A model generated the notes under the pieces. The model was not told where the DNA came from. It saw only the letters and a program-made list of their open reading frames with translations, and did no database searches. This document shows, piece by piece, positions 1,037-62,827 of a stretch of 64,000 nt of DNA. How positions within the stretch are numbered: position 1 is the first letter of the stretch; each line of letters begins with the position of its first letter. Position numbers and translations under genes: made by a program. This DNA is from Clostridiales bacterium (GTDB taxonomy: Bacteria > Bacillota > Clostridia > Christensenellales > CAG-138), in NCBI GenBank assembly GCA_009779405.1, contig WREI01000005.1:2166-66165 (forward strand), read 5' to 3'.

Positions 1037-1420
1037 ATGAACACAACGGAGCTGCAAACAAGAGTGGAGACCTATTTCGCGCAATGCGACGCGACGCGGC
1101 GCGATGTCACCAAGAAGGACGGGACTGTATCCGTATGGCAGCTGCCCTATACGTTCTACGGGCTCTGCGCGGCGTTAGGCGAGAGCGCGGCGCGCCTGCT
1201 GGCGCAGTCGCAGGGACGGGGGGCAGGGGCGCGCATCCTGCGCTGCGCGCTGCACCGCATCGCGGCGCACTTGGCGGAGCGGGCTCTTTTGGGTGATTTC
1301 CCGCACCAAATGGTGCTGCCCCTATTGCGGGAGACGGGCTTTTTGCCTGAGAGCGCGGAGGAGGGCGAGCGGGTTTGGGAGGTGCGGATGGACGCGAGGG
1401 CGGAGGAGTTGGGGAGATGA
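1037..1420 (+). CDS. phage terminase small subunit
   Basis: MNTTELQTRVETYFAQCD...PYTFYGLCAALG resembles the terS N-terminal HTH region; directly upstream of terL; GGAGCC RBS. Confidence 0.7.
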   Translation: MNTTELQTRVETYFAQCDATRRDVTKKDGTVSVWQLPYTFYGLCAALGESAARLLAQSQGRGAGARILRCALHRIAAHLAERALLGDFPHQMVLPLLRETGFLPESAEEGERVWEVRMDARAEELGR

Positions 1421-1517
1421 GAGGAAAGAGGAGAGAGAAAAGAGGAAAGATAGAGCGGGCGGAGAACATAGGAAAAACATTATCTTTCCTCTTTTCTCTT
1501 TCCACTTTCCTCTTCTC
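1419..1517 (+). repeat. composite palindromic element, family B (GGAAAGW words), core forward
   Basis: L arm 1419-1450, core GATAGAGCGGGCGGAGAACATAGG.. 1451-1482, R arm 1483-1517; sits between terS stop and terL RBS. Confidence 0.85.
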
Positions 1518-1535
1518 AGAAAGGAGACCCCGCCC

Positions 1536-2852
1536 ATGCCAAAGACCCTAACCCTCCACGGCACCCCCAACCCCCGCCAGGCGGAGTTCTTCGCAGCGCA
1601 ATCGGCGCATATCGCCTATGGCGGCGCGCGGGGCGGCGGCAAGAGTTGGGCCATGCGCCGCAAGTTTGTGCTGCTGGCCTGCCGCTATGCGGGCTTGCAG
1701 ATTCTGCTCCTGCGGCGCACCCTGCCCGAACTGACGGAGAACCATGTGCGGCCCTTGCTAGCGGAGCTGTATGGCTTCGCGACCTTCCGCCAGACGGCGC
1801 GCGAGTTCCTCTTCCCCAACGGCAGCCGCATCAAGTTGGGCTATTGCGACCGGGAGGCGGATGTGTATCAGTACCAGGGGCAGGAGTATGACGTGGTGGG
1901 TCTGGAGGAGGCCACCCACTCCACCGAGAGCCAGATGCAGTTTCTCACGACCTGCAACCGCGGCACGCGTTCGGATTTCTCCCCCCGCATGTACTACACC
2001 TGCAACCCCGGCGGCGCGGGCCACGCGTGGGTGAAGCGGCTCTTTGTGGAGCGCAGTTACCGCGAGGGCGAAATCGCGGCGGACTATGCGTTCATCCCCG
2101 CAAAGGTGACCGACAACCCCATGCTGATGCGCAATAACCCCGACTATGTGCGCAAATTAGCGGCACTGCCCGAGCCCCTGCGCCGCGCCCACCTCCACGG
2201 CGACTGGGATGTGCTGGCGGGACAGTATTTCCCCGAATTCCTGCGTGAGCGGCACGCCGTCCCGCCCTTCGCGATCCCCGCCTGGTGGAAACGCTTCCGC
2301 GCCATGGACTGGGGCTACAACGACCCCTGCTGTGTACTCTGGTTCGCGCTGTCGCCCGAGGGCATCATCTGCGTGTACAGGGAGCTATATCTCACCAAAA
2401 CCCTGTCTGCAGAAGTGGCAAGGCAAGCGGTGGCGCTATCGGCAGACGAACGGATTGCCTACACCGTCGCCTCGCCCGACGCCTGGCAGCAGCGCGGGCT
2501 ATCCGCCGAGGGGCGCAGCATCGCGGAGGTCTTCGCGAAAAACGGTATGCCCCTGCTGCCTGCGGACAGCGCGCGGGTGGTGGGCTGGCAGAGGGTAAGG
2601 GAGTGTTTGGCATCCGGCCTTCTCATCTTCACCAGCTGCCCCAACCTTCTCCGCACCCTCCCGCTGCTGACCTTTGACCCGCGCGACTGCGAGGATGTGG
2701 CGGACAATTGCGAGGATCACGCCGCCGAAGCCCTGCGGTATGGGCTGATGAGCAGACCCTCCCGAAGCGTGGAGGTCGCGCCGCCCGCCACGAGAACGTA
2801 TAACCCGTTTGCGACGGGGCGGACGGCGGGGAGTGGGTTTGTCGAGTTGTGA
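1536..2852 (+). CDS. phage terminase large subunit
   Basis: MPKTLTLHGTPNPRQAEFF..AYGGARGGGKSW (Walker A) ..VVGLEEA (Walker B-like); AAGGAG RBS; start 81 codons inside ORF 1293-2852. Confidence 0.9.
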   Translation: MPKTLTLHGTPNPRQAEFFAAQSAHIAYGGARGGGKSWAMRRKFVLLACRYAGLQILLLRRTLPELTENHVRPLLAELYGFATFRQTAREFLFPNGSRIKLGYCDREADVYQYQGQEYDVVGLEEATHSTESQMQFLTTCNRGTRSDFSPRMYYTCNPGGAGHAWVKRLFVERSYREGEIAADYAFIPAKVTDNPMLMRNNPDYVRKLAALPEPLRRAHLHGDWDVLAGQYFPEFLRERHAVPPFAIPAWWKRFRAMDWGYNDPCCVLWFALSPEGIICVYRELYLTKTLSAEVARQAVALSADERIAYTVASPDAWQQRGLSAEGRSIAEVFAKNGMPLLPADSARVVGWQRVRECLASGLLIFTSCPNLLRTLPLLTFDPRDCEDVADNCEDHAAEALRYGLMSRPSRSVEVAPPATRTYNPFATGRTAGSGFVEL

Positions 2853-2950
2853 GTGAATAGTTAAGAGTTAAGAGTTGTTGAAGAAATGCCTGCGGCATTT
2901 CGGACCAACAAATAGCTTCTACCTTCACTCTTAACTATTCACTCTTAACT
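2853..2950. repeat. composite palindromic element, family A (GTGAAKAGT/TAAGAGT words)
   Basis: L arm from 2853 right after the terL TGA; inner hairpin GAAATGCCTGCGGCATTTC 2883-2901; R arm 2916-2950. Confidence 0.85.
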
Positions 2951-2969
2951 AAACAAAAAGGAGTTTCCC

Positions 2970-4551
2970 ATGAAAAAAGAACCCCAATCAACCCTCTGGA
3001 CCACCGCCTTCGCCCTCTTCACCGAGTTCAAGAACGCCTATGCCGGGGAGTGGCGGCGCTTGGACGCTTGCGAGCGCATGTATCGCGGTGAGCATTGGAA
3101 CGACGTGCCGATGCAGGACGCGAACGAGCCGCGGCCCGTGACGCCCATCTTGCAGTCCAGCATCGAGACCCTGGCCGCCGATCTGCTGGATCGCGTGCCT
3201 GCCGCCGTCATTACGCCCGAGCGCGGCGCGGACGAGCGCGTGGCCCGCATCGTGGATGCCGTGATCGCCCGCAACCACGACAGCGCGGGCTATGCGCTGC
3301 AATACCGCCTGTTGGTGCACGACCTCCTCGTTGGCGGTTGGTGCGCGCAGGAGGTGGGCTATGACCCCGCGCTGAACCAGCATCTGGGCGGCGCGTATAT
3401 ACGCCGCTGCGACCCCAAGAGCATACTCTTCGACCCCCTCTGCACCGATTTGCAGGAGAGCCGGGCCGTGTTCAAGATCGCCGAGAAGAGCCGCGCCTGG
3501 ATGGCACAGCACTATCCCGACGACGCGCCCTATCTTTGCGATATTCCGCTGCTCGGCAAAGACGCGGGGCGGGACGGCGCGCTGCTGCCCGACCGTTCGG
3601 ATACGCTTTTGTTGCTGGAATACTGGTGGCGGGAATACGACGCCGACACGAGAAGCTATGCCGTGCATATGGCCCAGCTATGCGGCGGCCGCGTACTGAA
3701 AGACAGCCGCGATACCAAGCCCGAGGGCTATTTTGCGCACGGACTCTATCCCTTTGTCACTGCCGCGCTGTACCCGCGCAGTGGCACCTGTCTCGGGCAC
3801 GGGCTCTGCGACCTCTATGCCGGGGCGCAGAAATACGCGGACAAGCTGGATCAGATCGTGATGAAAAACGCGCTGATGGCGAGCCGCAACAAGCTACTCG
3901 TGACCGAAGCCTCGGGCTTTGACACGGACGACCTGAAAGATTGGACGAAGGAAGTCCACCGCGGCGAAAGCCTGGCCGGGATATCGTGGTTCGCCACGCC
4001 GCCCCTGCCCGCGTATATCCTCTCCTACATCCGCGAAACGCGGGAGAATATCAAGAACGAGAGCGGCGCGGGGCAACTATTCCAGCAATGTGACGGCGGC
4101 CAGCGCCATCACCGCGCTCCAGGAGGCGGCCACCAAGCGGAGCCGTATGGCGAGCATGCAGCTCTACGAGGCCTTCTCGCAGGCCGTGCGTATGGAGATC
4201 GAGGTGGAACGCGAGTTCAATTTCTTCGCGCGGCCCGTAACGCTCACCACGGACGGGCGGCGCGAGGAGGTGCATTTCGATACCGCGCTGCTGCAACGCG
4301 AGGGCTATGGCGGCGTCACCCTGCCCGTCGAGTTCTTTATTTCCGTCAAGACGGAGCGGCAGAACCGCTTCGCCGCCGCAGCCCAAAATGAGCTGATCTT
4401 ACAGCTGGTGCAATTGGGGCCTTTGCAGGCGGCGGAAGCGGTCGAGCTGCTGCACTTTGAGGGGAAGGAGCAGGTGCTGGCGAAGATGCGAGAGCGTGGC
4501 ACAGAGGAAGCCGTCCCTGTCGCCCGGAAGGGGCGGCGGGGAGCCGGATAG
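2970..4551 (+). pseudogene. phage portal protein interrupted by a frameshift near 4069-4072
   Basis: Frame 1 (2970-~4070) turns into Arg/Gly-rich nonsense; frame 2 continues ..GNYSSNVTAASAITALQEAATKRSRM (portal-like motif) to 4551; switch at the run GCGGGGC. Confidence 0.8.
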
Positions 4552-4651
4552 TGAATAGTTAAAAGTTGTGGTTAAAATTCCTGCGGAATTTTGATTCAAT
4601 CAGGAATCGCTTGCGATTCCTGCCATAACTCTTCACTTTTCACTTTTAACT
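4551..4651. repeat. composite palindromic element, family A
   Basis: L arm GTGAATAGTTAAAAGTTGTGG overlaps the portal TAG; inner hairpins 4574-4592 and 4602-4621; R arm CCATAACTCTTCACTTTTCACTTTTAACT to 4651. Confidence 0.85.
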
Positions 4652-4686
4652 CACCAAACACAATCCAAACCCGAAAGGAGAACCAG

Positions 4687-5085
4687 ATGTTATTCAAAAA
4701 GAACTCCCCGCCGCCGGAAGCGACGGAAGAAAACCCCTTTGCCGAGCTGGCGGTCGAGCTGGCGCAGATGGCTGAAGAGGGCAGTTTGCCCGAGGGCTTC
4801 GATTTGGAAGCCGCCTGTCAGGATCCGGCCTTTGCGGCGCTTTTGGGCGAGTTGGAGCCGTATGCGGCCATCCGCATCTATGCGGCTGAAGCGCGCGCGG
4901 CTGCCGCCGAGGAGAACGCCATGCAGACGCTCTCAGCCCGCCAGCAGGCGCGGGCCTCCCTGCCTCTGCCCGCGCGCGGCGGCAGCGGCACAACCGCCAC
5001 GCCCGATTATGCCGCGATGTCCCCCGCCGCTTTCCGCGCCCTCGAAGCGCAGCTCCGCGCCGCGCAGAGGCGGGGAAGGAAATAG
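4687..5085 (+). CDS. phage scaffolding-like protein
   Basis: Acidic, Ala-rich 132-aa protein between portal and capsid genes; AAGGAG RBS; function inferred from position only. Confidence 0.5.
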   Translation: MLFKKNSPPPEATEENPFAELAVELAQMAEEGSLPEGFDLEAACQDPAFAALLGELEPYAAIRIYAAEARAAAAEENAMQTLSARQQARASLPLPARGGSGTTATPDYAAMSPAAFRALEAQLRAAQRRGRK

Positions 5086-5169
5086 GCAGTAGGCAGTAGT
5101 GCCTGCAAACAAACTTTAATTAGAATTGTTTGCGACAATTCTTACCATGCCTACTGCCCACTGCCTATT
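5083..5169. repeat. composite palindromic element, singleton word GGCAGTA
   Basis: L arm TAGGCAGTAGGCAGTAG 5083-5099 (includes the stop); inner hairpin AGAATTGTTTGCGACAATTCT 5122-5142 followed by TACC; R arm CTACTGCCCACTGCCTATT 5151-5169. Confidence 0.8.
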
Positions 5170-6431: not shown

Positions 6432-6551
6432 TAAATGAGTTAAGAGTTAAGAGTGAATAGTTAAGAGTTGCGGTAAGAACCGCAAGCGGTTCTTAATCTT
6501 ATGAAATGCCATGGGCATTTCGACAATAACTCTTCACTATTCACTCTTAAC
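6431..6551. repeat. composite palindromic element, family A
   Basis: L arm 6431-6473; inner hairpins AAGAACCGCAAGCGGTTCTT 6475-6494 and GAAATGCCATGGGCATTTC 6503-6521; R arm 6523-6551. Confidence 0.85.
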
Positions 6552-8915: not shown

Positions 8916-9028
8916 AAGTGGAAAGAGGAAAGAGGAAAGGGGAAAGGGGAAAGTTAGAGTGAGCGGAGTATATGGACATAAAATTTCTAACCATCAAGTT
9001 CCTCTTTCAACTTTCCACTCTTAATTTC
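8914..9028 (+). repeat. composite palindromic element, family B, core forward
   Basis: L arm GAAAGTGGAAAGAGGAAAGAGGAAAGGGGAAAGGGGAAA; core GTTAGAGTGAGCGGAGTATATGGACATAAAATTTCTAACC; R arm 8995-9028. Confidence 0.85.
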
Positions 9029-10073: not shown

Positions 10074-10189
10074 AGTGTGAAGCGTGAAGTGTGGAGTGTG
10101 GAGTTTCGGTAGGAATCGCAAGCAATTCCAATTAAAGTTCAAAATGCCGCAGGCATTTTTACCTTAACTCCACTCTTCACACTCCACAC
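10074..10189. repeat. composite palindromic element, singleton words GTGAAGC/GTGTGGA
   Basis: L arm AGTGTGAAGCGTGAAGTGTGGAGTGTGGAGTT; inner hairpins 10112-10129 (after GGTA) and 10141-10159 (before TACC); R arm 10162-10189. Confidence 0.85.
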
Positions 10190-10218
10190 CCGCCCCCCTA
10201 CCCCAACCCCGAAGATTC

Positions 10219-12363: not shown

Positions 12364-12438
12364 GAAGTAATAAGTAAAAATGCAGAAAACAGAGAGAACG
12401 GCTCTACACCTCTCTGCCTTCTGCATTATTACTTATTC
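12364..12438. repeat. composite palindromic element, family C (AATAAGT/AATGCAG words)
   Basis: L arm GAAGTAATAAGTAAAAATGCAGAAAACAGAGAG 12364-12396; R arm CTCTCTGCCTTCTGCATTATTACTTATTC 12410-12438; between convergent genes. Confidence 0.85.
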
Positions 12439-12439
12439 C

Positions 12440-13420
12440 TTATCGGAAGATGCCTTCCAAGATAAAGCTGTCCACATCGTCGTCATAAAAATTATAATCA
12501 TCCAATACGGGCGAATAGGTGACGACAGACAGATTGCCCGTGGCGGGGTCTATCGTCAGTATGCGCAGGTAGCCGAGACCCTCGCCGTTGCGATGCTCTT
12601 CCTGCAGGTTGAAGAGCAACGCCGTCACTGTATGCCCGGCAGGATAACTTTTCCGCCATTTTGCTTCGCCGTACATATGCCCGCAGAGCAACAGACGCAG
12701 ATTCGGATGCGCGGCGAACAGGGCTTCCAGTCGCTCCCCGCCCCCCGTGGGCATGCCATCCGCCAACAAAAAGCTGTGAATGAGGATGATGACCACATGG
12801 TTCGAGTGCGCCGCCATTTGCGTTTCCACCCAATCGAAATGCGGGGTTTCCTCCCCCTGCCAGCCGATGCCGAGCAGCAGAATTTTCAAGCCGCCCGCGT
12901 CGATTGGCTGCGCCCAGCATTGCCCGCCCTCGTAGAGCAGTTCGGGCTCGCGCGCATCGCAGAAGTCGTGGGATAAATATTCGGTATAATCGAAAACGGG
13001 ACGCCACACATCGTGGTTGCCGGCAACGACATAGAGGGGCATTGCGCCGCGTATGGCGGCCATGCCGGGCGCAATGTTTTCCCATTGTTCGGGCTTCTCA
13101 CGGTTATCCACCACATCGCCCACATGCAGGGCCGCAATCAGGTTATGTGCCGCCGCATTGTCTGCAATCCAGCGCGCCGTTTCGTCAAACGCTTCGGGAT
13201 ACTTGGCCGCGTAGATCTGCGTATCGGAGATCCATACAAAGGAGAAGGGCGTGGGGATGGGCGTGGGCGCGGGGGTAACGATTGTGATCTCCACGGTGAA
13301 GGGCGTCGGGGTGGGATCGGGCGGCGTCGGATGCGCTTGCGAGGGCAGGTCTGCGCAGGCGCAAACAACGCAGAGCGCCGCGACGCATAACAGGAGCGCG
13401 CAAAACCGAATCTTTCGCAT
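12440..13420 (-). CDS. metallophosphoesterase lipoprotein
   Basis: Lipobox LCVVCAC; FVWISDTQ, GDVVDN, GNHD calcineurin-like motifs; start at MRKI chosen for GAGG spacing. Confidence 0.8.
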   Translation of the reverse strand: MRKIRFCALLLCVAALCVVCACADLPSQAHPTPPDPTPTPFTVEITIVTPAPTPIPTPFSFVWISDTQIYAAKYPEAFDETARWIADNAAAHNLIAALHVGDVVDNREKPEQWENIAPGMAAIRGAMPLYVVAGNHDVWRPVFDYTEYLSHDFCDAREPELLYEGGQCWAQPIDAGGLKILLLGIGWQGEETPHFDWVETQMAAHSNHVVIILIHSFLLADGMPTGGGERLEALFAAHPNLRLLLCGHMYGEAKWRKSYPAGHTVTALLFNLQEEHRNGEGLGYLRILTIDPATGNLSVVTYSPVLDDYNFYDDDVDSFILEGIFR

Positions 13421-20099: not shown

Positions 20100-20151
20100 A
20101 CAGAATTCTTTCGTGTGCTTTACATAGCTTGTCCCGTTGTGAGGGAGTTAT

Positions 20152-20266
20152 GAGCGAATAGTGAAGCGTTAAGAGTTGTGGTGGAAATTCCGCAGGAATT
20201 TCCAATTAAATTTTGGAATCGCTTGCGATACCTTCCGCAACTCTTAACTCTTCACTTTTTACTCAC
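20152..20266. repeat. composite palindromic element, family A
   Basis: L arm 20152-20181; inner hairpins GGAAATTCCGCAGGAATTTCC 20183-20203 and GGAATCGCTTGCGATACC 20215-20232; R arm 20235-20266 covers the tmcAL stop. Confidence 0.85.
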
Positions 20267-25331: not shown

Positions 25332-25427
25332 GAGTGGAAAGTGGAAAGATGAAAGAGGAAAGATCATGTTATTCCCATACGCTTCACCTGCTCTATCTTT
25401 CCGCTTTCCACTTTCAGTTTTCCTCTT
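25332..25427 (-). repeat. composite palindromic element, family B, core reverse
   Basis: L arm 25332-25363; core is the reverse complement of GATAGAGCAGGTGAAGCGTATGGG..; R arm 25396-25427; fills the gap between the rnpB 3' end and the trpS RBS. Confidence 0.85.
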
Positions 25428-28221: not shown

Positions 28222-28310
28222 GCCGTCATCGGCGTCACAGCGTCACTGACGCACGGGTTTTGATCGGCACGCAATGACGACGATGACGGCGATGACGGCG
28301 ATGACGACGA
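28222..28310. repeat. imperfect palindromic element, singleton word GATGACGGC/CGTCATCGG
   Basis: L arm GCCGTCATCGGCGTCACAGCGTCACTGACGC; R arm GCAATGACGACGATGACGGCGATGACGGCGATGACGAC; pairing is imperfect. Confidence 0.6.
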
Positions 28311-28341
28311 TTTCTAAGATATATATCTCCAAAGAAGTCAA

Positions 28342-28376: not shown

Positions 28377-28946
28377 ATGAAGAACATCATTTTTCTAAAC
28401 GGCGTGTCCAGCTCGGGTAAATCCACGCTGGCGAAAGCCCTACAGGAAGCGCTGCCGGAACCGTACTGCCTGCTCAGCGTCGACAATTTCCTCAATACCA
28501 TGCATGAGAAATTCCTGAACGCCGAACACTACGCGACGATATTTCGGGCCGTTGGGGTCATGCACCGCACAATCCGGGTCTTCGCAGACGCGGGGCTGCC
28601 TGTGATTGTGGATCATGTGCTGGAGCGGCAGGACTGGCTGACGGAATGCGTAAACCTACTGCACGGATACTCGGTGCTGTTTGTCCGCGTGACCTGCCCG
28701 GTGGAGGAACTGCGGCGCAGGGAAAAGGCGCGCGGCGACCGCGATATTGGGCAGGGCGAGAGCCAGCTGGCGTACCTATGCCCGAAGGATGGCACCTATG
28801 ATATCACGGTGGATACATGCAACAGCTCTATAGAGGAATGCGTGCGCGATATTATGGCACTGTTGGAGGAGCCAAGAAAGCCGAGGGCGTTTGAGACGCT
28901 TTGGGCGCGATACAATGCGCAATGCACGACGCGCAATGCGCAATGA
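28377..28946 (+). CDS. chloramphenicol phosphotransferase-like P-loop kinase
   Basis: FLNGVSSSGKSTLAKAL Walker A; CPT-family-like layout; the last ~10 codons (NAQCTTRNAQ) lie in the arm of a family D element. Confidence 0.7.
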   Translation: MKNIIFLNGVSSSGKSTLAKALQEALPEPYCLLSVDNFLNTMHEKFLNAEHYATIFRAVGVMHRTIRVFADAGLPVIVDHVLERQDWLTECVNLLHGYSVLFVRVTCPVEELRRREKARGDRDIGQGESQLAYLCPKDGTYDITVDTCNSSIEECVRDIMALLEEPRKPRAFETLWARYNAQCTTRNAQ

Positions 28947-29022
28947 AGCGCCCGCTCAATCAAGGAGATGCCGACGGCATCTCTACAACCATTGCGCGTT
29001 GAACATTGCACATTGAACATTG
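28913..29022. repeat. composite palindromic element, family D (CAATGCG/CAATGTT/CAACGCG words)
   Basis: L arm 28913-28945; inner hairpin GAGATGCCGACGGCATCTC 28965-28983 followed by TAC; R arm 28990-29022. Confidence 0.85.
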
Positions 29023-29725: not shown

Positions 29726-30561
29726 TCCTGTTTGAGAACGTCACATATGAATACCCGGAGACCACCCGCCCCGCCCTGCGGGAGATTTCGCTTGCGCTGG
29801 ATACGGCGGCGTTTACCGCCGTCGTGGGGCATAACGGCAGCGGCAAGAGCACCTTTGCCAAGTTGGTGAACGGTCTGCTCCTGCCCACAAGCGGAACGGT
29901 TACGGTGAACGGGCTGGCGACGGCAGAGGAAAAGAACCTGCTCGATATACGCCGCGGCGTGGGCATGGTCTTCCAAAACCCCGACAACCAGTTTGTCACG
30001 ACGATTGTGGAGGAGGATGTGGCCTTCGGCCCCGAGAATCTCGGCGTACCGACGGAGGAAATACGCGAGCGCGTGGACGAGGCCCTGGCCACAGTGGGAC
30101 TGTCGGACTATGCCCGCCACGCGGCGCACAAGCTCTCGGGCGGGCAGAAACAGCGTGTCGCCGTCGCGGGGATGCTGGCCATGCGCCCCCAACTGATGGT
30201 GCTGGACGAGGCCAGCGCCATGCTCGACCCGCGCGGGCGGCAGGAACTCCTCGGGACCGCGCACAAGCTGCATGCGGGCGGCATGGGCATCCTGATGATC
30301 ACCCAATATATGGAGGAAACCGTCGACTGCGACCGCCTGATCGCCCTCCAAAACGGCGAGGTCGCCTTCGACGGCAAGCCCGGCGGCTTCTTCCGCGACG
30401 GCGATTTCGTCCGCTCCATAGGTCTCGAAACCCCCGAAGCCGTCTATATCCGCGACGCGTTGCGGCGGAATGGCGCGGCGATTGCGGGGAAGGCGTTGAC
30501 CTTGGAGGAGTTGGCGGAGGAAGTTTGCGCGCTGCGCGCGCAGTTAAGAGTGAATAGTTAA
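29722..30561 (+). CDS. ecfA1: ECF transporter ATPase component EcfA1
   Basis: GHNGSGKST Walker A; LSGGQKQRVAVAG signature; ecfA1-ecfA2-ecfT-truA gene order. Confidence 0.9.
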   Translation: MILFENVTYEYPETTRPALREISLALDTAAFTAVVGHNGSGKSTFAKLVNGLLLPTSGTVTVNGLATAEEKNLLDIRRGVGMVFQNPDNQFVTTIVEEDVAFGPENLGVPTEEIRERVDEALATVGLSDYARHAAHKLSGGQKQRVAVAGMLAMRPQLMVLDEASAMLDPRGRQELLGTAHKLHAGGMGILMITQYMEETVDCDRLIALQNGEVAFDGKPGGFFRDGDFVRSIGLETPEAVYIRDALRRNGAAIAGKALTLEELAEEVCALRAQLRVNS

Positions 30562-30677
30562 GAGTTGCGGTAAAAAACAGCAAGCTGTTTTTATTGAAGC
30601 TTTAATATCGGAAATTTCGCAGAAATTTCCCAACCGTGCTGATGTATCGGCACGGTGCAACTCTTCACTATTCACTC
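30543..30677. repeat. composite palindromic element, family A (three inner hairpins)
   Basis: L arm 30543-30570 contains the ecfA1 stop; hairpins 30573-30592, 30610-30630, 30633-30656; R arm 30657-30677. Confidence 0.85.
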
Positions 30678-35357: not shown

Positions 35358-35478
35358 GTGGAAAGAGACACCTTTCAGCTTTCATAGAAAGCTGAAAGGG
35401 AGGAAAGAGGAAAGTTAGAGTGAGCAATGAACATGGAAATGCCTTAACTTTCCTCTTTCATCTTTCCACTTTCCTCTC
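35358..35478 (+). repeat. composite palindromic element, family B, core forward, with extra hairpin 35371-35399
   Basis: Core GTTAGAGTGAGCAATGAACATGGAAATGCCTTAAC; R arm CTTAACTTTCCTCTTTCATCTTTCCACTTTCCTCTC. Confidence 0.85.
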
Positions 35479-35487
35479 TGCTAAGTT

Positions 35488-35955
35488 ATGATTCTGCAAG
35501 CAACCCAACAAGACCTCCCCGAACTCATGGCTCTGTACCGGAGCCTGATTGGCACGCCCGGCTGCATCTGGAGCACGGAATATCCCTTTTTGGAGTTGGC
35601 GGAGGAGGATGTGGAGCGGGGCTATGTCTTTGTGATGCGGATGGGCGGCAGGCTGATCGCGACCATCACCGTGGAGACGCCGGAGGATATCGCCGACTTG
35701 GACTGGACGTCCAAGCGCCCCTGCGAACTGGCGCGCTTAGGCGTGGCGCAGGAATATCAGGGACAGGGCCTTGGCGCAACGATGCTGCAATTTGCCCTGT
35801 ACAAAGCAATGGAACGCGGCCACGACGGCGCGATCCTGTTGGTAAACCCCGCGCACGAAGCCGCCGTTGCCCTGTACAGAAAGCATGGATTTGCGCGTTG
35901 CGGGGATCTATTTATGTATGAAAGAAATTGGGATAGGTATGAGCTGTGTTTTTAA
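35488..35955 (+). CDS. GNAT-family N-acetyltransferase
   Basis: RLGVAQEYQGQGLGATML acetyl-CoA-binding motif. Confidence 0.75.
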   Translation: MILQATQQDLPELMALYRSLIGTPGCIWSTEYPFLELAEEDVERGYVFVMRMGGRLIATITVETPEDIADLDWTSKRPCELARLGVAQEYQGQGLGATMLQFALYKAMERGHDGAILLVNPAHEAAVALYRKHGFARCGDLFMYERNWDRYELCF

Positions 35956-36067
35956 GTGGAAAGAAGAAAGTGAAGGTAAAAAATGCTGCGCATTTTTGAT
36001 TGAAATTTTATGTCCATATTCCCCCGCCCACTCTAACTTTCCTCTTTCCACTTTCAACTTTCCACTT
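35956..36067 (-). repeat. composite palindromic element, family B, core reverse
   Basis: L arm GTGGAAAGAAGAAAGTGAAGG; GGTA plus hairpin AAAAATGCTGCGCATTTTT 35979-35997; core is the reverse complement of GTTAGAGTGGGCGGGGGAATATGGACATAAAATTTC; R arm reaches 36067 and covers the WYL gene stop. Confidence 0.85.
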
Positions 36068-38639: not shown

Positions 38640-38701
38640 AAGTAATAAGTAATAATGCAGAATGCAGAGAGGGGAATATTTTCTCTGCATTCTGCATTAT
38701 T
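38640..38701. repeat. composite palindromic element, family C (compact)
   Basis: L arm AAGTAATAAGTAATAATGCAGAATGCAGAGAG; R arm CTCTGCATTCTGCATTATT contains the stop of 38697-39605. Confidence 0.85.
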
Positions 38702-39605
38702 CCCTATCCTCTCTCCCAAACTCCTCCACATCCCCGCGAATCTCCGCCTCCCACTGCGCGGTCTCGGCGAGCTCGTTGCGCTTGCTCAAGGGGGTGTTCA
38801 TCTTGCGGTGCAGGGACAGGAGGTCGGGCGCGTCTTCAACCGTGATCGCCGCCAGCGGGTCGCGGTTCGCTCTGGCGGCGATGGCGCGCTTTTCCGTCCG
38901 GCGTTCGATAACGCGCAGGGCGATGATCCCGGTCAGCGAGAGCAGGGGGAGCGGCGCAAGCAACGCGGCGCCATAGATGCCTATACGCGTCACATAGGCG
39001 GAGAAAAACTCCTGCGGCAGCATTTCGATCATATTCGTCCCGGCGGGCAGCAGCCAGTTGGTGGAGTTCGGAAACGCGACTTGATGGAAAAAGGTCCAGA
39101 ACCCGTCGAAGTCCGCGACCGCCCAGATGCCGACGAAGGCCGCAATCACCCCAAAGAGCATATAGGCATAGCATATGGCCGCGCCGCAGGTCGGAATCAG
39201 CTGCCGCCGCTGGAGGACGATGCCCAACAGAAAGAGGAAGATGGCGCCGATGGCGGCAAAGTTGCGCAGGGCGGCGATGCGCTGCCAAAGGTTGCGCACC
39301 TCCCGCATATGCACCTTCTCAATGGTGGAGGGGAACATCTCGGTCTTGAGCATGCCCTTATAGCCCTCGTAATAGATATCGTTCACATCGCCGCGCATAT
39401 AGTCCAAGAGCCGTTGCGTCGCGCCCACGACGTCGGGCAGGCGGGAGTTGAGACTCTCACTCGCATAGCTCTTGATCTCCGCGTGGGTCTGCTCCAAAAA
39501 GGGCCGATCCCGCATCGTAAGATCCACCGCCGTGACAATCAGGCAGGCGATCAGCAGCAGCGTGGCAAGGGACATCAGAGGTATGGTAAAAGCTTTTCTT
39601 TTCAT
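38697..39605 (-). CDS. TIGR01906/DUF1461 integral membrane protein (Lit-like)
   Basis: TM topology and the FFHQVAFPN..W motif recalled from DUF1461. Confidence 0.65.
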   Translation of the reverse strand: MKRKAFTIPLMSLATLLLIACLIVTAVDLTMRDRPFLEQTHAEIKSYASESLNSRLPDVVGATQRLLDYMRGDVNDIYYEGYKGMLKTEMFPSTIEKVHMREVRNLWQRIAALRNFAAIGAIFLFLLGIVLQRRQLIPTCGAAICYAYMLFGVIAAFVGIWAVADFDGFWTFFHQVAFPNSTNWLLPAGTNMIEMLPQEFFSAYVTRIGIYGAALLAPLPLLSLTGIIALRVIERRTEKRAIAARANRDPLAAITVEDAPDLLSLHRKMNTPLSKRNELAETAQWEAEIRGDVEEFGREDRE

Positions 39606-39644: not shown

Positions 39645-39706
39645 GAGAGAGGAAAGTTAAGGCATTTCCATGTTCTCCGCCTACTCTATCTTTCCACTTT
39701 CAACTC
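39645..39706 (-). repeat. composite palindromic element, family B (short), core reverse
   Basis: GAGAGAGGAAAGTTAAGGCATTTCCATGTTCTCCGCCTACTCTATCTTTCCACTTTCAACTC; core is the reverse complement of GATAGAGTAGGCGGAGAACATGGAAATGCC. Confidence 0.75.
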
Positions 39707-41912: not shown

Positions 41913-42017
41913 CAATGCGTCAATGTGCAACGCACAATGTTCAATATGGTGGGAATGTATAAACCCACAAAATAAAGAGAGATGCCGGGGGCATCTCAAG
42001 CTTCATTGCACATTGCC
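41913..42017. repeat. composite palindromic element, family D
   Basis: L arm CAATGCGTCAATGTGCAACGCACAATGTTCAAT; hairpins 41949-41968 and GAGATGCCGGGGGCATCTC 41979-41997; short R arm CATTGCACATTGCC 42004-42017. Confidence 0.75.
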
Positions 42018-49012: not shown

Positions 49013-49135
49013 TAATGTTCAATGTTCAACGCGCAATGTTCAATGACGGATGAAACCCCCTGTGGGCGTTTCTTTAATCAAAAAGATGCGCAGCATCTCC
49101 ACCATCATTGCGCGTTGAACATTGCATATTATACA
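49013..49135. repeat. composite palindromic element, family D
   Basis: L arm TAATGTTCAATGTTCAACGCGCAATGTTCAATG 49013-49045; hairpins 49052-49072 and 49084-49098 (followed by CCACC); R arm 49106-49135 covers the stop of 49129-49548. Confidence 0.85.
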
Positions 49136-49591: not shown

Positions 49592-49704
49592 GTGAGTTGC
49601 GTGAAGAGTGAAGAGTGAAGAGTTGCGGTAGGAATCGCAAGCGATTCCAAATTTAAATTAGAAATTCCTGCGGAATTTCTGCCTTAACTCTTAACTCTTC
49701 ACTC
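49592..49704. repeat. composite palindromic element, family A
   Basis: L arm 49592-49628; GGT+AGGAATCGCAAGCGATTCC 49627-49648; AGAAATTCCTGCGGAATTTCT+GCC 49660-49683; R arm 49681-49704. Confidence 0.9.
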
Positions 49705-50401
49705 AAAACAACTTCCTCTCCCCCTTAATATCAATACCGCATTCCCGCGCAACACTGCTCTGCTTGAACGGATTGATTTTCAGCACTTCGCCGTCCTTAC
49801 GGAAGAAGGAGCCCGTGTTTTTGAACCAGAAGGTTTTACCTGCGGCTGCGCATTGCTCGCGGATTTGCAGTACCCAGTCATAGTCGCAGACGCGCGCTTC
49901 GCGGCCGCTTTCGCCGCCGACTGTGACGTGTTCCACGCCTTGCAGATAGGGCGTCAAATCAATCGGCCCCAGCAACGGCCCACAGGCGATAAAGCGGCGG
50001 CGGATGGGGAATGAAAGAAACAGGGGCAGGCGTTGATCGGCGATTGCCTGATTCTCCACGGTGCAGCCGAGGTTCACGTTTTCATAGCCATCGCCCCAGT
50101 CGGCGGGCAGGGAGACGGGGAAGCGGTCTATGCGCTTGGTCAGGATAAGGAATTCCAAATCCGGGCGCGCGCGCATCATCGCCCAGGCCTCGGCGCGCCA
50201 CGCGTCCGCTTCGGAAAGAAAGAAGTCCGTGGCAAAGCAGGTGGCGACGATCTTACCGCTTACAATCCGTAAGGGCTTGTCAAACTCGCCGGTCTTGACA
50301 ATCTCGTTCTGCCCATAGCGCTTGCTGTAAGATCCGTAGAAATAGCAATATTTACAGCCCTCGCTGTGCGCATAACAGCCCGTCCACGGCTCCCAGTTCA
50401 T
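49703..50401 (-). CDS. DUF5131 (phage Gp37/Gp68-like) protein
   Basis: MNWEPWTGCYAHSEGCKYCY N-terminus is typical of the family. Confidence 0.7.
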   Translation of the reverse strand: MNWEPWTGCYAHSEGCKYCYFYGSYSKRYGQNEIVKTGEFDKPLRIVSGKIVATCFATDFFLSEADAWRAEAWAMMRARPDLEFLILTKRIDRFPVSLPADWGDGYENVNLGCTVENQAIADQRLPLFLSFPIRRRFIACGPLLGPIDLTPYLQGVEHVTVGGESGREARVCDYDWVLQIREQCAAAGKTFWFKNTGSFFRKDGEVLKINPFKQSSVARECGIDIKGERKLF

Positions 50402-51400: not shown

Positions 51401-51417
51401 GGGGGGCTCCTTTGTAC

Positions 51418-51545
51418 AGTGAAGAGTTAAGAGTGAATAGTGAAGAGTTATGGTAGAAATGCCTGCGGCATTTCTGCAACTAAAAGCTTAAATAAAAACA
51501 GCTTGCTGTTTTTACCGCAACTCTTCACTACTCTTCACTCTTCAT
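51418..51545. repeat. composite palindromic element, family A
   Basis: L arm 51418-51453; GGT+AGAAATGCCTGCGGCATTTCT 51452-51475; AAAAACAGCTTGCTGTTTTT+ACC 51494-51516; R arm 51515-51545. Confidence 0.9.
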
Positions 51546-53800: not shown

Positions 53801-53937
53801 AGGAATAGGAAATAATGCAGAATGCAGAGATTTTTACGGAATACAATCCGCAAAAGCTTGATTATGCATATGTTTGCGGAATGTAATCCTTAAAATATGC
53901 TAAGCTTCACTGCCTTCTGCATTATTACTTATTATTT
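53801..53937. repeat. composite palindromic element, family C
   Basis: L arm AGGAATAGGAAATAATGCAGAATGCAGAGA; inner pairing TCCGCAAA/TTTGCGGA; R arm TCACTGCCTTCTGCATTATTACTTATTATTT. Confidence 0.8.
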
Positions 53938-55634: not shown

Positions 55635-55741
55635 GAGTGAAGAGTTAATAGTGAATAGTTGCGGCAGGAATTCCTGCGGAATTCCCTAACTAAATAAAAA
55701 ATACCGCAGGTATTTTCACCATAACTCTTAACTCTTCACTC
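55635..55741. repeat. composite palindromic element, family A
   Basis: L arm 55635-55664; GGCA+GGAATTCCTGCGGAATTCC 55667-55685; AAAATACCGCAGGTATTTT+CACC 55698-55720; R arm 55719-55741. Confidence 0.9.
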
Positions 55742-56410: not shown

Positions 56411-57421
56411 ATGAAAAAGAAAAGACCCGAAACAGAACCGAAGCTCACATGGGCGGAAATCAAGGACAATAAGCCGATCGGCCTGTTCATCATCGCGAAC
56501 ATCTACGCGCTGGCATCCGTGCTCGGCATACTCCTCTTTAACGCGTGGCCGGATATGCATTTCATCTGGCGTATCGCGATCGCCGCCGCCGCCGCGACCG
56601 TATTCGTATACCTCACGGGCCTGATCTTTCAAAACGCGTCGGTCTATGATCCCTATTGGAGCGTCGCGCCCCTCGTCGTGTTTTCGGGCTTTGCCGTGCA
56701 CGTCGGCGTGGTCAGCCAAGGCACGCCGCTGCTCCTGCTTGCGGTCTGGTTCTGGGGCCTCAGACTGACCCGCAACTGGGCTTATACGTTCAAAAACCTC
56801 GCCACGCAGGACTGGCGCTATGACAATTTCAAGCAGCGCTTCCCGCGTCTCTATCCGATCATCAGCCTGTTCGGCATACACCTGTTCCCCACCCTCGTCG
56901 TCTATCTTTGCATGCTGCCGGGGATCGCACTGATGCAAAACTATTTCTTCAATATATTTACGGTGTTAGGCTTTGCGGTCTGCGTCGGCGCAACCATCCT
57001 GCAACTGATTGCCGACAGGCAGATGTACCAATTCCGGCGCAAAGACAAGGACAGGCAGGGCATCATCCGCGTGGGCCTGTGGAAGCACGCGCGCCACCCG
57101 AACTATCTGGGCGAAATTCTGATGTGGTGGGGCGTCTACGGCATGATGCTCTCGGTCGCGCCGCGCCTGTGGTTCCTCGGTCTCGGCGCATTGGTCAACA
57201 CGCTGATGTTTCTCTTTATCAGCATCCCCATGGCGGACAAGCGCAACCGCGCAAATAAGCCCGGCTTCGCGGAATACGTGCGCGAGACGAACCACTTGCT
57301 GCCGTTCAGGCTGAAGCGGCAGGTGAAAGGGAGCAGGGGACAGGGGGCAGGGGACAGGGATCAGGAGACCGCCCCCGATCCCGCTGTCTCCGCGCTGCCC
57401 TTTTTGCCCCCGGATCTGTAA
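56411..57421 (+). CDS. DUF1295 (steroid 5-alpha-reductase/ICMT-like) membrane protein with a repeat-derived C-terminal tail
   Basis: GLWKHARHPNYLGEILMWWG motif; the last ~35 codons overlap the GC-rich palindrome 57333-57410. Confidence 0.75.
   Translation: MKKKRPETEPKLTWAEIKDNKPIGLFIIANIYALASVLGILLFNAWPDMHFIWRIAIAAAAATVFVYLTGLIFQNASVYDPYWSVAPLVVFSGFAVHVGVVSQGTPLLLLAVWFWGLRLTRNWAYTFKNLATQDWRYDNFKQRFPRLYPIISLFGIHLFPTLVVYLCMLPGIALMQNYFFNIFTVLGFAVCVGATILQLIADRQMYQFRRKDKDRQGIIRVGLWKHARHPNYLGEILMWWGVYGMMLSVAPRLWFLGLGALVNTLMFLFISIPMADKRNRANKPGFAEYVRETNHLLPFRLKRQVKGSRGQGAGDRDQETAPDPAVSALPFLPPDL
57333..57410. repeat. GC-rich imperfect palindrome built from GGGGACA/GGGGGCA words, inside the 3' end of a CDS
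   Basis: L arm GCAGGGGACAGGGGGCAGGGGACAGGGATC; R arm GATCCCGCTGTCTCCGCGCTGCCCTTTTTGCCCC; pairs only with bulges. Confidence 0.5.
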
Positions 57422-57443: not shown

Positions 57444-57479
57444 GCGTGACGTGCGTGACAACCGTTACATCTGTTACGC
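57444..57479 (+). repeat. 16-bp hairpin from GCGTGAC words, stable only as plus-strand RNA
   Basis: GCGTGACGTGCGTGAC-AACC-GTTACATCTGTTACGC: 14 of 16 pairs including 4 G-U on plus; those 4 become C-A on minus. Confidence 0.6.
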
Positions 57480-57483
57480 TTTG

Positions 57484-57556
57484 TAATGCTCAATGTTCAA
57501 CGCGCAATGTTCAATGTTGGTGGAAACGCCAAGGCGTTTCTCTATTGATTGTATAG
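57484..57556. repeat. composite palindromic element, family D with a degenerate right arm
   Basis: L arm TAATGCTCAATGTTCAACGCGCAATGTTCAATG; GGTG+GAAACGCCAAGGCGTTTC 57523-57540; right side only weakly complementary. Confidence 0.65.
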
Positions 57557-61092: not shown

Positions 61093-61109
61093 GTTGCTCT
61101 CCTTTATTT

Positions 61110-61198
61110 GAGTGAATAGTGAAGAGTTGCGGTGAAAATACCTGCGGTATTTTTATTTCATTAGGAATCGCCTGCGATTCCTACCATAACTCTTAACT
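61110..61198. repeat. composite palindromic element, family A (short right arm)
   Basis: L arm GAGTGAATAGTGAAGAGTTGCGG; GGTG+AAAATACCTGCGGTATTTT 61135-61153; AGGAATCGCCTGCGATTCCT+ACC 61163-61185; R arm CCATAACTCTTAACT. Confidence 0.85.
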
Positions 61199-61603: not shown

Positions 61604-61613
61604 GGAGTACACC

Positions 61614-61803: not shown

Positions 61804-61830
61804 AAAAAGCTGCCGCAAGGCAGCTTTTTT
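61804..61830 (+). terminator. intrinsic terminator after the SASP pair
   Basis: AGCTGCC-GCAA-GGCAGCT followed by TTTTTT. Confidence 0.85.
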
Positions 61831-61991
61831 AGTGAAAAGTGAATAATTAAGAGTTAAGAGTTGCACCGTGCCGATGTATCGGCACGGTTGGAAATCGCAA
61901 GCAATTCCCATGATAATATTGAAATGCCGCAGGCACTTCTACCATAACTTTTAACTCTTCATTCTTAACTCTTAACTCTTAACTATTCACT
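61831..61991. repeat. composite palindromic element, family A (largest copy, three inner hairpins)
   Basis: L arm 61831-61864; hairpins 61865-61888, 61890-61908, 61921-61939 (+TACC); R arm 61942-61991. Confidence 0.9.
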
Positions 61992-61993
61992 TG

Positions 61994-62665
61994 CTATATC
62001 TCCCTCGCGGCTCTCCTTGCATTCTCCACAAACAAGCGCACCTTCTCCGGGTCTTTGCGCAACACGACGCCGTTCTCCACGACCGAGGTCTTGGTCAGCG
62101 AGTCCACGCCCCAGGGGCGCACCTTTTGCACGGCGTCATATACATTGTCTGCGGACAGGCCGCCCGCCAGCACGACAGGGATATTGACCTCCTCGACAAT
62201 GCGGCGATCCAAGTCCCAATCGTGTACAATGCCGCTCGCGCCGATGCCATATTGACAGAGGGTATCCGTCATCAGATAATCTGCCGCGCCCTCATAGCTC
62301 TTGGCGACGGTGACGCACTCCGGCCCGTCCACAGACACAGCTTGCATCAGGCGTATGCCGGGGATCGCGGCTTTCAGTTTGGCCGCGAACGCGTGGGTGG
62401 CAAAGACCACCTCGTCGCAGAGATGCACGATATCCGGGCGCAGTTCCTTCGCGATTTCGATCACCAGATCCTCATCGCGCACCATAATGATGGCGAGCTT
62501 GACCGCCAAATGCCCGATGGCGTCAAACACGGCTCGGGCCCGTTCCACATCAATACAAGCGGGGCAGGAAGCATCGCCCACCAGCAGGCCGATCTGATCG
62601 ATGCCGGCGCGGATGCACTCCAGCGCTTCCTCGGGCGTCTGTATGGAAAAGACTTGGGTGACCAT
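61994..62665 (-). CDS. phosphoribosylanthranilate isomerase (TrpF)-like TIM-barrel protein
   Basis: Start MVTQVFSIQTPEEALE with AAGGAG RBS; C-terminus ..VLAGGLSADNV..PWGVDSLTKT resembles the PRAI fold. Confidence 0.55.
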   Translation of the reverse strand: MVTQVFSIQTPEEALECIRAGIDQIGLLVGDASCPACIDVERARAVFDAIGHLAVKLAIIMVRDEDLVIEIAKELRPDIVHLCDEVVFATHAFAAKLKAAIPGIRLMQAVSVDGPECVTVAKSYEGAADYLMTDTLCQYGIGASGIVHDWDLDRRIVEEVNIPVVLAGGLSADNVYDAVQKVRPWGVDSLTKTSVVENGVVLRKDPEKVRLFVENARRAAREI

Positions 62666-62684
62666 GGCGAATCTCCTTTTAGAT

Positions 62685-62827
62685 GATAAGTAATAATGCA
62701 GAATGCAGAGAGGGTTGAGAAGTAAGAGGTAATAATGCAGAGAGATTCTGAGCAAAGACTTATTTGCTCGTCCTAACGCATGTTTGCCGAATGAAGATTC
62801 TCTGCATTCTGCATTATTACTTGTTCC
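62685..62827. repeat. composite palindromic element, family C (left arm partly duplicated)
   Basis: L arm 62685-62712, partial second copy 62720-62744; R arm TCTCTGCATTCTGCATTATTACTTGTTC 62800-62827; the Fur-family ORF reads into it. Confidence 0.85.

Follow-up and report, generated by a model that had tools for sequence, protein, structure and literature searches.

Heptamer-armed palindromic repeats between the genes of a Clostridiales bacterium: a probable lineage-specific burst of non-autonomous elements

Palindromic repeats of about 100 bp, each consisting of inverted arrays of 7-nucleotide words around a core of one to three short hairpins, occur roughly once every 2 kb in a 64,000-nucleotide stretch of a Clostridiales bacterium (contig WREI01000005.1 of assembly GCA_009779405.1; this whole stretch is hereafter called the window). 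By comparing the copies with one another, with the same gene junctions in relatives, and with similar loci in other phyla, we arrive at the view, which we hold to be probable, that these elements are a lineage-specific burst of several families of palindromic repeats, non-autonomous and docking in the gap from a stop codon to the following ribosome-binding site (RBS), comparable to doublets of repetitive extragenic palindromes (REP) that form hairpins (REPINs) or to MITEs (miniature inverted-repeat transposable elements). Duplication and dispersal in this lineage would have produced the copies, which would have settled where only a few nucleotides part a stop codon from the RBS after it, within operons and a resident prophage as well.

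A gapless inverted-repeat scan (arms of at least 18 nt, at least 72% complementary, spanning at most 230 nt) yielded 23 clusters in the window versus 0-1 in each of ten Markov shuffles; two of the 23 are helices of the RNase P RNA gene and the other 21 are elements. Inverted pairs within 200 nt number 68, and the longest 25 of these lie almost all at the sites listed by an earlier reading of the letters alone (the sequence-only reading). Upon folding of 30 sites, 25 gave z scores from -3.95 to -10.9, and none of 200 dinucleotide shuffles folded as stably. Both the arm complementarity and the folds thus stand well clear of shuffled sequence, and the units that had been described as 31 palindromes of 7-nt words are real, dense and intergenic; they are, however, not 31 equal ones. 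Since the remaining sites (33105, 39650, 41913, 57333 and 57444/57487, counted as six) fold weakly or are fragments, the count becomes about 25 solid copies plus about six partial ones, together about 3.1 kb or 4.8% of the window. The arms match themselves with a mean of 0.74 at a lag of 7 nt, against 0.24-0.32 at lags of 5, 6, 8 and 9, and a recount returned the word families as first listed. Most elements have a GC content of 0.33-0.46 (family D reaches 0.54) in a window of about 0.58, in agreement with the AT-rich islands noted before.

It is scarcely credible that the elements are artefacts, be it assembly chimeras, collapsed low-complexity sequence or a chance clustering of AT-rich spacers. 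The data do come from a metagenome assembly, where repeats assemble poorly, but 15 elements are covered by contigs of four other samples (ERZ27257304, ERZ27257295, JGI 3300010882 and SRR10512950) at 99.8-100% identity, without indels and from two assemblers, the cluster count far exceeds that of the shuffles, and isolate genomes, among them those of Clostridium senegalense JC122, Nostoc NIES-4103 and Winogradskyella pacifica, carry similar elements. The lack of indels also means that the arms are not hypervariable on the timescale separating the four samples; contigs that are so nearly identical are, by the same token, uninformative on arm slippage or new insertions.

Each unit has outer arms of three to six tandem heptamers, and in one register most words begin with AGT or AGA: AGTGAAG, AGTTAAG and AGTGAAT in family A, AGTGGAA and AGAGGAA in family B, AGTAATA and AGAATGC in family C, and AGTAGGC and AGTGTGG in singletons, family D (CAATGYK) being the exception. 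The consensus of family A runs from AGTKAAG words through AGTTGCGGTAG, the hairpin GAATCGC AA GCGATTC, an AT-rich linker and the hairpin GAAATKCC GCA GGMATTTC to TACCATAACT and CTTMACT words, and it folds into a three-way structure with an outer stem and two hairpins of 8-10 bp. The first hairpin type (X) has the apex GCAAGC or its complement GCTTGC, and the second (Y) a GCA or TGC triloop. In families A and D and in some singletons the core hairpins have perfect Watson-Crick stems of 8-11 bp and an outward-facing AGTTGCGGTA(G) foot, a design common to family A, family D and the singleton at 5081, whereas family B has instead a non-palindromic core of about 35 nt (TAGAGTGRGCGGAGWAYATGGAMAT...). 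The inner hairpins measure 17-24 nt, with stems of 8-11 bp, and the elements hold 27 of the 52 perfect hairpins of the window. The cores are specific to this lineage, since perfect hairpins of the X and Y types number 16 here, whereas loci with a distant relationship or none, 1.31 Mb in all, have 3.

That the copies have moved is indicated by distant copies that share the whole unit, unique core and linkers included. The copies at 20151 and 49597 are 88.7% identical over 97 nt in inverted orientation, those at 1420 and 25333 83% over 72 nt, also inverted, and those at 7353 and 8917 (86% over 88 nt) and at 4550 and 61107 (86% over 84 nt) agree in the same orientation; to judge from these alignments, the elements are dispersed repeat copies and not locally grown structures. 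Orthologous junctions in relatives point the same way, and the clearest of these tests is the ecfA1|ecfA2 junction. Between ecfA1 and ecfA2, which are about 150 nt apart here, the gap is the element, while in four relative contigs (L140-L143, numbers with L being our labels for comparison contigs), whose EcfA2 proteins are 84%, 77% and, in two contigs, 66% identical, the two genes overlap or are fused and no element is present. Five syntenic junctions in a phage contig (L137), with proteins 40-70% identical to those of the window, comprise 0-60 nt or a plain GC hairpin, again with no element. No heptamer palindromes were detected in the relatives L140 (12.8 kb) and L142 (11.6 kb). Because these six orthologous junctions are empty in relatives, the burst is specific to this lineage, with resident phage DNA also colonised. 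Metagenome relatives of the monogalactosyldiacylglycerol (MGDG) synthase gene were less useful for this comparison, the closest (88% amino acid identity) having a different downstream synteny and the rest being too distant. At the empty ecfA1 end of L140 (9990-10010) we observed GTGAATAAATAATG, and the same codons here (30540-30565) read GTGAATAGTTAAG, the family A word pair; the likeness could reflect microhomology at insertion, or chance, and is a single case.

The position of the elements relative to genes is equally regular. At about 20 of 30 copies a flanking open reading frame (ORF) has its stop codon at -34 to +9 nt relative to the outer edge, in many cases within the first heptamers, which bears out the earlier statement that the elements start near stop codons, and the next start codon follows 8-34 nt past the other edge, with just enough space for a Shine-Dalgarno (SD) sequence of the AAGGAG type. 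Genes on the minus strand show the same placement of the stop codon, at the right edge of the element. Read directly from the sequence, and as already noticed, the family A string GTGAATAGTTAAG contains TGA, TAG and TAA in three frames. Where an arm lacks stop codons the ORF continues into the element, as in the tail of the DUF1295 gene (57333-57421), and element 30526 supplies the last ~11 codons and the TAA stop of ecfA1. As an observation on the proteins themselves, the last ~11 codons of EcfA1 (30526-30561) and the last ~30 of the DUF1295 protein (57333-57421) are repeat DNA.

The arms also have a fixed polarity: on either strand, 18 elements of the window are purine-first, 3 are mixed and none is pyrimidine-first. 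As either strand of a palindrome gives the same reading, the polarity belongs to the element and not to the strand or to replication, and a replication-strand orientation bias, which we considered, was rejected for that reason. The cores of family A occur in either orientation relative to transcription. Flip-flop of the loops of inner hairpins was considered as a sign of hairpin-primed replication and rejected, as the orientation of the whole element explains most loop inversions, with a single subfamily differing. The asymmetric core of family B (TAGAGTGRGCGGAG...ATGGAMAT), by contrast, is co-oriented with transcription in all six determinable copies (7353, 8917, 1420, 35357, 25333 and 39650; two-sided p ~0.03).

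How such insertions could be tolerated is suggested by their folding. The insert would zip into a long mRNA hairpin (-30 to -60 kcal/mol) that rejoins the upstream stop codon and the downstream RBS, so that hairpin formation in vivo would restore translational coupling, and in family A the purine-first arm would face ribosomes arriving from either direction with stops in three frames. We infer that the RNA hairpin is why insertions are tolerated and not why they exist; if they influence expression, be it by protecting 3' ends, by RNase III processing or by attenuating transcripts in part, this would be a by-product and not the reason for the existence of the elements. As mobiliser, the most likely candidate would be a REP-associated Y1 transposase (RAYT-like) acting on hairpins in single-stranded DNA, and replication slippage may have extended and trimmed the heptamer arms.

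The sequence-only reading had seen the matter the other way round: the complement carried by each right arm was taken as compensatory covariation under selection for pairing, and the elements as possibly the main 3'-end structures. On such an account they would be selected RNA structures (3'-end, insulator or mRNA-stabilising hairpins) that are palindromic through selection on RNA pairing. In its favour are the very stable folds, the beginning of elements at stop codons, the co-orientation of all six family B cores, and the scarcity of strong hairpin-plus-T-run terminators in the window, which are indeed few, as had been said. Some inner hairpins, with an A-tract, a GC clamp and a T-tract, moreover resemble miniature bidirectional terminators, and a terminator scan flags those at 20182, 49660, 41979 and 57522; in Xanthomonas, transcripts start or stop more often at G-quadruplex-forming heptamer repeats than at control repeats (PMC4692102). 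We nevertheless regard this account as unlikely. Within families, pairing between the two arms of one copy is no better than pairing of its left arm with right arms taken from other copies (permutation p 0.14, 0.53 and 0.29), 29 of 49 arm mismatches are of the transversion type, and G·U-compatible mismatches are equal on the transcribed and the other strand (5 vs 5, for plus-transcribed copies). Double substitutions are clear only in the small inner hairpins: the Y hairpins are 98% Watson-Crick (an upper bound, perfection having been part of how they were picked out), of 8 pairs 6 show double and none single (G·U) substitutions, and RNAalifold on family A gives the same picture. With neither copy-specific arm covariation nor an excess of G·U, we read the palindromy of the arms as an inherited DNA-level property of each family, as in terminal inverted repeats (TIRs) and REPINs, and the covariation argument falls away for the arms. 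A principal role as terminators fares no better: copies stand inside operons that must be read through (ecfA1|ecfA2 and the phage structural module), family A occurs in both orientations, relatives lack elements at the same junctions, and copy 61831 directly follows a genuine terminator (61804-61829). Most outer stems have no U-tract; they are AT-rich and are followed by an SD or coding sequence, so the features of intrinsic terminators are absent, and few inner hairpins pass even a loose scan.

Two further explanations concern the heptamers themselves. They could be iteron-like arrays, in inverted pairs, for a nucleoid-associated, regulatory or RNA-binding protein such as CsrA or S1, an improbable explanation in our judgement. 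The strict 7-nt spacing, the AGT/AGA start of many words, the invariant purine-first polarity and the GGA recurring every 7 nt in family B words speak for it, and comparable sites have been interpreted as binding IHF/HU in Geobacter (PMC2700814), with a post-transcriptional regulator proposed for TAACTGA repeats (PMC4679880). It would, however, require several proteins for at least seven unrelated word families in 64 kb; a 7-bp period is out of phase with the helix, the flanking genes share no function, in RNA the words are taken up by pairing with the opposite arm, and the sites are missing at the same genes in relatives. Slightly less probable still is growth in place, by which slippage would have added 7-nt duplications on both sides of a local hairpin, seeded by the stop codon or the SD, and nothing would have moved. 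Heptanucleotides are reportedly the most abundant long simple repeats in most prokaryotic genomes, with polymerase slippage proposed as their origin (Mrazek 2007, as represented in PMC4679880), 7-nt indels separate Cyanothece strains (PMC4679880), and here the number of arm words varies between homologous copies, the ecfA1 end of L140 (GTGAATAAATAA) is similar to GTGAATAGTTAA, the family A word that the window has at this position, and family B words resemble the local SD GAAAGGAG. Against this account, cores and linkers that are not repetitive agree at 83-89% identity between distant copies, which goes part of the way to showing a recent common ancestry of copies at different loci; particular words return at sites that are otherwise unrelated, and a palindromic word order is not expected from independent slippage on two sides.

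The explanation that we favour, a burst of dispersing palindromic repeats, has difficulties of its own, and the following observations weigh against it. The window encodes no transposase whatever, and a tblastn search with approximate sequences of the IS200 TnpA and the Escherichia coli RAYT as queries found no match in 1.46 Mb, which is a weak test. The edges show no consistent direct repeat that would indicate a target-site duplication, and the empty sites are too diverged for breakpoints to be placed. No arm has an indel across the four other samples, giving no direct sign of slippage on a short timescale. The co-orientation of family B hints at a function that depends on orientation, or at biased insertion, neither of which follows from a purely selfish model. 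The likeness to REPINs is incomplete as well, the GTAG foot being only approximate and families B and C being without REP-like hairpins, and heptamer words that are identical across phyla are not explained by a lineage-specific mobile element.

Work on REP/REPIN doublets and on RAYT transposases of the Y1 HUH type was reportedly published by Ton-Hoang in 2012. REPIN doublets and their mobilisation by RAYTs have been described (Bertels & Rainey 2011, PMC3116915), and small dispersed repeats of Nostoc were there grouped with REPIN-like elements. With these systems the present elements share short hairpins, here with an only approximately GTAG-like foot, inverted doublets forming one long hairpin, and an extragenic location in many copies and both orientations; the palindromic unit of 20-40 nt has its counterpart in the inner hairpins of 17-24 nt, and the inverted doublet in the family A consensus GGTAG-hairpin X-linker-hairpin Y-CTACC. 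The outward flank here is AGTTGCGGTA or GTTATGGT followed by G or A, and the feet (GGTAG, GGTAA, GGTGA and GGCAG) are similar but not constant; unlike those of REPINs, the cores are AT-rich, perfectly paired, very short and enclosed in heptamer arrays. The window has no RAYT gene. In a related high-GC Clostridia-type contig (L116, 3139-3234 and 10155-10202; the same as L117) we observed inverted doublets that are GC-rich and have GTAG feet (TGTAGGGCGCGCCGACCCCGGCGCGCC ... CCCTACA); these are classical REPIN-like elements without heptamer arms. With MITEs the elements have in common the small size, the lack of coding sequence, the inverted terminal sequence, the high copy number and the insertion polymorphism between relatives; they differ in ending in microsatellite arrays, not in a defined TIR, with no consistent target-site duplication seen at the edges, and no parent insertion sequence was found in the window or in related contigs. 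We know of no description, for the Firmicutes, of a composite dispersed repeat of ~100 bp next to stop codons.

Heptamer arrays have their own history. In cyanobacteria, short tandemly repeated repetitive (STRR) heptamers were reportedly described by Mazel in 1990, and hairpin 'small dispersed repeats' of 21-27 nt nested in Nostoc heptamer arrays are said to have been reported by Elhai in 2008. The likeness lies in intergenic tandem arrays of heptamers, the difference in the phylum and in the arrays there being often long and one-sided. At the RNA level the nearest parallel is with intercistronic stem-loops, such as the REP of E. coli between malE and malF and the RNase III sites of T7, which are single conserved sites that are read through; the present elements, a burst of dispersed repeats, would probably work like them, as long read-through stems between cistrons, the likeness being one of function only. 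Similar in geometry are the GGGAATC heptamer repeats of Xanthomonas, with 70-75 convergent inverted pairs per genome, mostly transcribed, and the paired heptamers of Xanthomonas and Nostoc (GGGAATC / GGGGAYT), which were read as G-quadruplex formers in a study remarking that heptameric repeats had received no detailed treatment in the literature (Rehm et al. 2015, PMC4692102). Those pairs are likewise intergenic tandem arrays of 7-nt units between co-oriented ORFs, with the purine array of the sense strand at most 50 bp away from the stop codon or overlapping it and the antisense array just upstream of the next ORF (PMC4692102). They are G-rich; here the words are AT-rich, which rules out G-quadruplexes except at 57333 (GGGGACA), and the window differs further in the number of its word families, in the REP-like hairpins nested in the arrays and in a density that is much higher. 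Geobacter metallireducens has pairs of three to five tandem repeats of 7-9 nt on opposite strands, 70-115 bp apart, one of them inside an operon, between proB and proA, which are absent from G. sulfurreducens and were called putative IHF/HU sites (Aklujkar 2009, PMC2700814). These 'global regulator binding sites' comprise classes 1-3, with insertion sequences at fixed distances from some; their supplementary alignment has the same polarity as ours, with pyrimidine-rich words (MTYCTGA) at the 3' side on each strand, while the words differ and inner REP-like hairpins are not reported there (PMC2700814). TAACTGA repeats are known from Beggiatoaceae, cyanobacteria and Bacteroidetes (MacGregor 2015, PMC4679880).

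Other candidates were set aside. Integron attC sites were rejected on the order of the arms (GTTAAGA ... TCTTAAC, opposite to RYYYAAC ... GTTRRRY), the housekeeping flanks and the absence of an integrase, none being encoded in the window; CRISPR was rejected since the arms are inverted and the copies scattered, one per intergenic gap. No element matched Rfam at the gathering threshold, and at E<=1 only eukaryotic microRNA-hairpin models below threshold appeared; BLAST of a family A copy against plasmid and phage collections gave no match, and a literature search by element sequence strings returned nothing relevant. The earlier description of the family as undescribed and unlike REP thus agrees with the lack of Rfam, plasmid and phage matches, and is to be corrected in view of the REP/REPIN-like cores and the published heptamer pairs. 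What we have found is not a new kind of element: several phyla have palindromes of paired heptamer arrays, and those of this Firmicute are a variant that is AT-rich, comprises many families and carries REP-like hairpins.

The same architecture was indeed met in other organisms. A scan of genome contigs with the 17-mer GTGAATAGTTAAGAGTT returned more than 106 contigs from very different phyla, a figure that gives no frequency, as by our own estimate ~70 chance matches are expected in 596 Gb. Among the matches listed, ~70 of 109 lie in period-7 arrays of 25-151 nt, and 15 have a complementary array (at least 17 of 21 matching) downstream, none upstream; BLAST matches to the arms of the window extend to 32-48 nt. 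The composite of arms and inner hairpin was found, again among the matches listed, in Hymenobacteraceae and other Bacteroidota, Eubacteriales, Microcystaceae, Nostoc, Oscillatoria, Sulfurovum, Clostridium senegalense, a deltaproteobacterium, an acidobacterium and Patescibacteria. AGTTAAG/AGTGAAT arrays on both sides of a hairpin core are thus known to us from Firmicutes, Bacteroidota, Cyanobacteria, Acidobacteria, Campylobacterota, Deltaproteobacteria and Patescibacteria, and three Nostoc loci (L049, L033 and L015) have AGTTAGG/AGTTAAG arrays with the complement downstream. A blind scan of these loci detected 33 heptamer-armed palindromes (27 purine-first, 6 mixed, none pyrimidine-first), with other words among them such as AGTCCAA, GGCAGTG, GGGCATC and AGAATTT, and viral contigs contributed five more, all purine-first, so that the tally for a purine-rich 5' arm, a rule without exception, is 18 to 0 for the window, 27 to 0 for the loci of other phyla and 5 to 0 for the viral contigs, and the convergent pairs of Xanthomonas conform to it as well. 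On one viral contig (L172:5485-5658, IMG/VR) we noted a palindrome of TCAGGAG words, the heptamer of the class 3 paired sites of Geobacter metallireducens. A covariance model of family A recovers all 11 copies of the window at 66-121 bits and gives full-length matches with E<1e-5 in ~25 loci of other phyla; as the loci had been chosen because they carry the arm word, this demonstrates the presence of the architecture in them but gives no measure of its frequency.

As the cores vary by lineage while arms and polarity are shared, a conserved process that builds or requires 7-nt arrays around DNA hairpins is suggested, and a set of unrelated selfish repeats would not be expected to look like this. 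It is a tentative idea, and in our estimation rather doubtful, that heptamer-armed palindromes constitute a single pan-bacterial class produced by one unrecognised mechanism. One candidate, to be entertained with the same reserve, is hairpin-directed single-strand transposition combined with templated or slipped synthesis of heptamers from both 3' ends; another, no less speculative, is a universal host factor that reads purine-rich 7-nt repeats. The invariant purine-first polarity and the AGT-type words recurring across phyla are the interesting part.

The individual copies are as follows, with fold z scores (z) and, for family A, covariance-model scores in bits. Family A is represented between the terminase gene (terL) and the portal gene (2838..2957; 35-nt arms, z -9.7, 66.6 bits; absent at the L137 junction); at 4550..4652, with the core inverted so that the Y hairpin precedes the X hairpin (z -7.4, 104.8 bits); between the capsid and adaptor genes (6439..6551; z -9.9, 112.9 bits), where L137 has a GC hairpin instead; and, with AGTGTGG words around a family A core, upstream of holB (10074..10199; z -5.9, 103 bits). 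Further copies lie between nadE-like and HIGH-nucleotidyltransferase genes on the minus strand (20151..20265; z -9.7), between ecfA1 and ecfA2, where a GC hairpin accompanies the element (30526..30677; z -10.9), at 49597..49706 (z -7.7, with the top score of 121 bits), in a divergent gap (51416..51540; z -7.8, 100 bits), between the MGDG-synthase gene and plsY (55635..55741; z -7.4; stop codon 4 nt before and start codon 13 nt after), at 61107..61198 (z -4.8, 85 bits) and, with three inner hairpins, directly after the canonical terminator at 61804-61829 (61831..61992; z -6.0). A fragment after truA (33105..33150; z +0.8) is a family A left arm alone (AGTGAAGAGTGAAGAGTT) with no partner arm.

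Family B begins with a copy of AGAGGAA/AGTGGAA words between a small phage ORF and terL (1420..1513; 33-nt arms, 94% complementary, z -6.9), the corresponding L137 junction having overlapping genes and no element, and continues between the adaptor gene and the next phage gene (7353..7450; z -4.7), where in L137 the stop codon overlaps the SD without an element, and at 8917..9019 (z -4.3), which aligns with the family. The others are found with the gene for RNase P RNA on one side and one for a tRNA synthetase on the other (25333..25415; z -5.7), at 35357..35479 with a nested 13-bp hairpin at 35371-35399 (z -6.5), between convergent genes with both stop codons within the arms (35954..36067; z -3.95), and at 39650..39705, a truncated copy whose core aligns with family B (z -1.4). 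Family C has a copy of AGTAATA/AGAATGC words between convergent genes, both stop codons of which abut the element with gaps of +9 and -2 (12365..12441; 32-nt arms, 88%, z -8.6), one with a minimal core (38645..38707; 20/20 paired arms, z -7.9), one after a P-type ATPase gene (53804..53933; z -7.7) and one at 62688..62832 (24/24 paired arms, z -7.5). To family D belong the copy of CAATGCG/CAACGCG words at 28913..29022, with a GAGATGCC-GAC-GGCATCTC hairpin and a CTAC foot (z -7.3), and that at 49013..49131 (26-nt arms, 92%, z -7.0); a degenerate D-like copy at 41913..41999 has CAATGCG/CAATGTT words and a GAGATGCC-GGG-GGCATCTC hairpin (z -2.4), and of two fragments at 57444..57545 (z -1.85) one is a hairpin of GCGTGAC and the other a left arm of family D that has a GAAACGCC-AA-GGCGTTTC hairpin. 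The singleton of AGTAGGC words at 5081..5169 (19-nt arms, 18/19 paired, z -8.2; absent at the L137 junction) contains the stop codon of the upstream ORF in its arm, and a weak palindrome of GGGGACA words (57333..57400; z -1.3) lies within the 3' tail of the DUF1295 ORF, which ends at 57421. Finally, a palindrome of GATGACGGC 9-mers in a divergent gap (28222..28312; z -4.1) is a doubtful member with period 9, not 7, and its pyrimidine-rich arm first; its polarity is opposite to that of every heptamer element, and it is probably a different kind of repeat.

The gene content of the window (two genes for small acid-soluble spore proteins (SASPs), a LytR-CpsA-Psr protein, trpS/tyrS, tsaD, plsY and pta, and the gene orders ecfA1-ecfA2-ecfT-truA and holB-yaaT(PSP1)) indicates a spore-forming Firmicute; the two SASP genes are in tandem (61331-61802). 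Exact protein matches to the window came from only a handful of metagenome contigs, the organism being rare in public data. One comparison contig (L107) has all of its 76 mismatches to the window at its ends (49853-50164 and 61558-61721, its last ~300 and ~170 nt), which suggests paralogue or strain mixing at contig ends and not real divergence. From about 1000 to 10070 there is a small phage-like module with terminase, a portal of the P22/SU10 type, capsid and adaptor genes; delimited more closely (~995-10068), it consists of a small ORF, these four genes and a few ORFs, and directly adjoins holB. Neither this module nor the rest of the window has tail, lysis or integrase genes, and a small serine recombinase (Resolvase) lies ~1.2 kb ahead of the window start (contig L181:1-7031); the module could be a defective prophage, a satellite or a unit resembling a gene transfer agent. 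The only Rfam matches in the window are two tRNAs and the RNase P RNA (25429-25875, minus strand), whose gene is ~80 nt longer than the Rfam model (447 nt vs 367 positions). It contains two near-perfect hairpins of ~68 nt (25669-25737 and 25822-25889) with similar feet (CCCRGCACCT ... AGGYGCCGGG), which are not heptameric (lag-7 match 0.29-0.36). They recall repeat-driven helix extensions said to occur in cyanobacterial RNase P RNA, where STRR arrays reportedly lengthen helix P12 (Vioque, in 1997).

Earlier groups have each read heptamers in their own way, as G-quadruplexes, as IHF sites or as translational regulators, and all of these ad hoc readings differ. The window is an unusually clean case, with many families, a very high density and clearly empty orthologous sites, and its cores connect heptamer arrays to the biology of REP and REPIN elements. 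The elements alter gene ends, through C-terminal tails and stop codons supplied by their arms, and part genes that formerly overlapped, which matters for annotation and operon prediction in such genomes. If it is true that the 7-nt unit, the AGT words, the polarity and the docking at stop codons share one mechanism, this would be a new general process shaping bacterial intergenic DNA.

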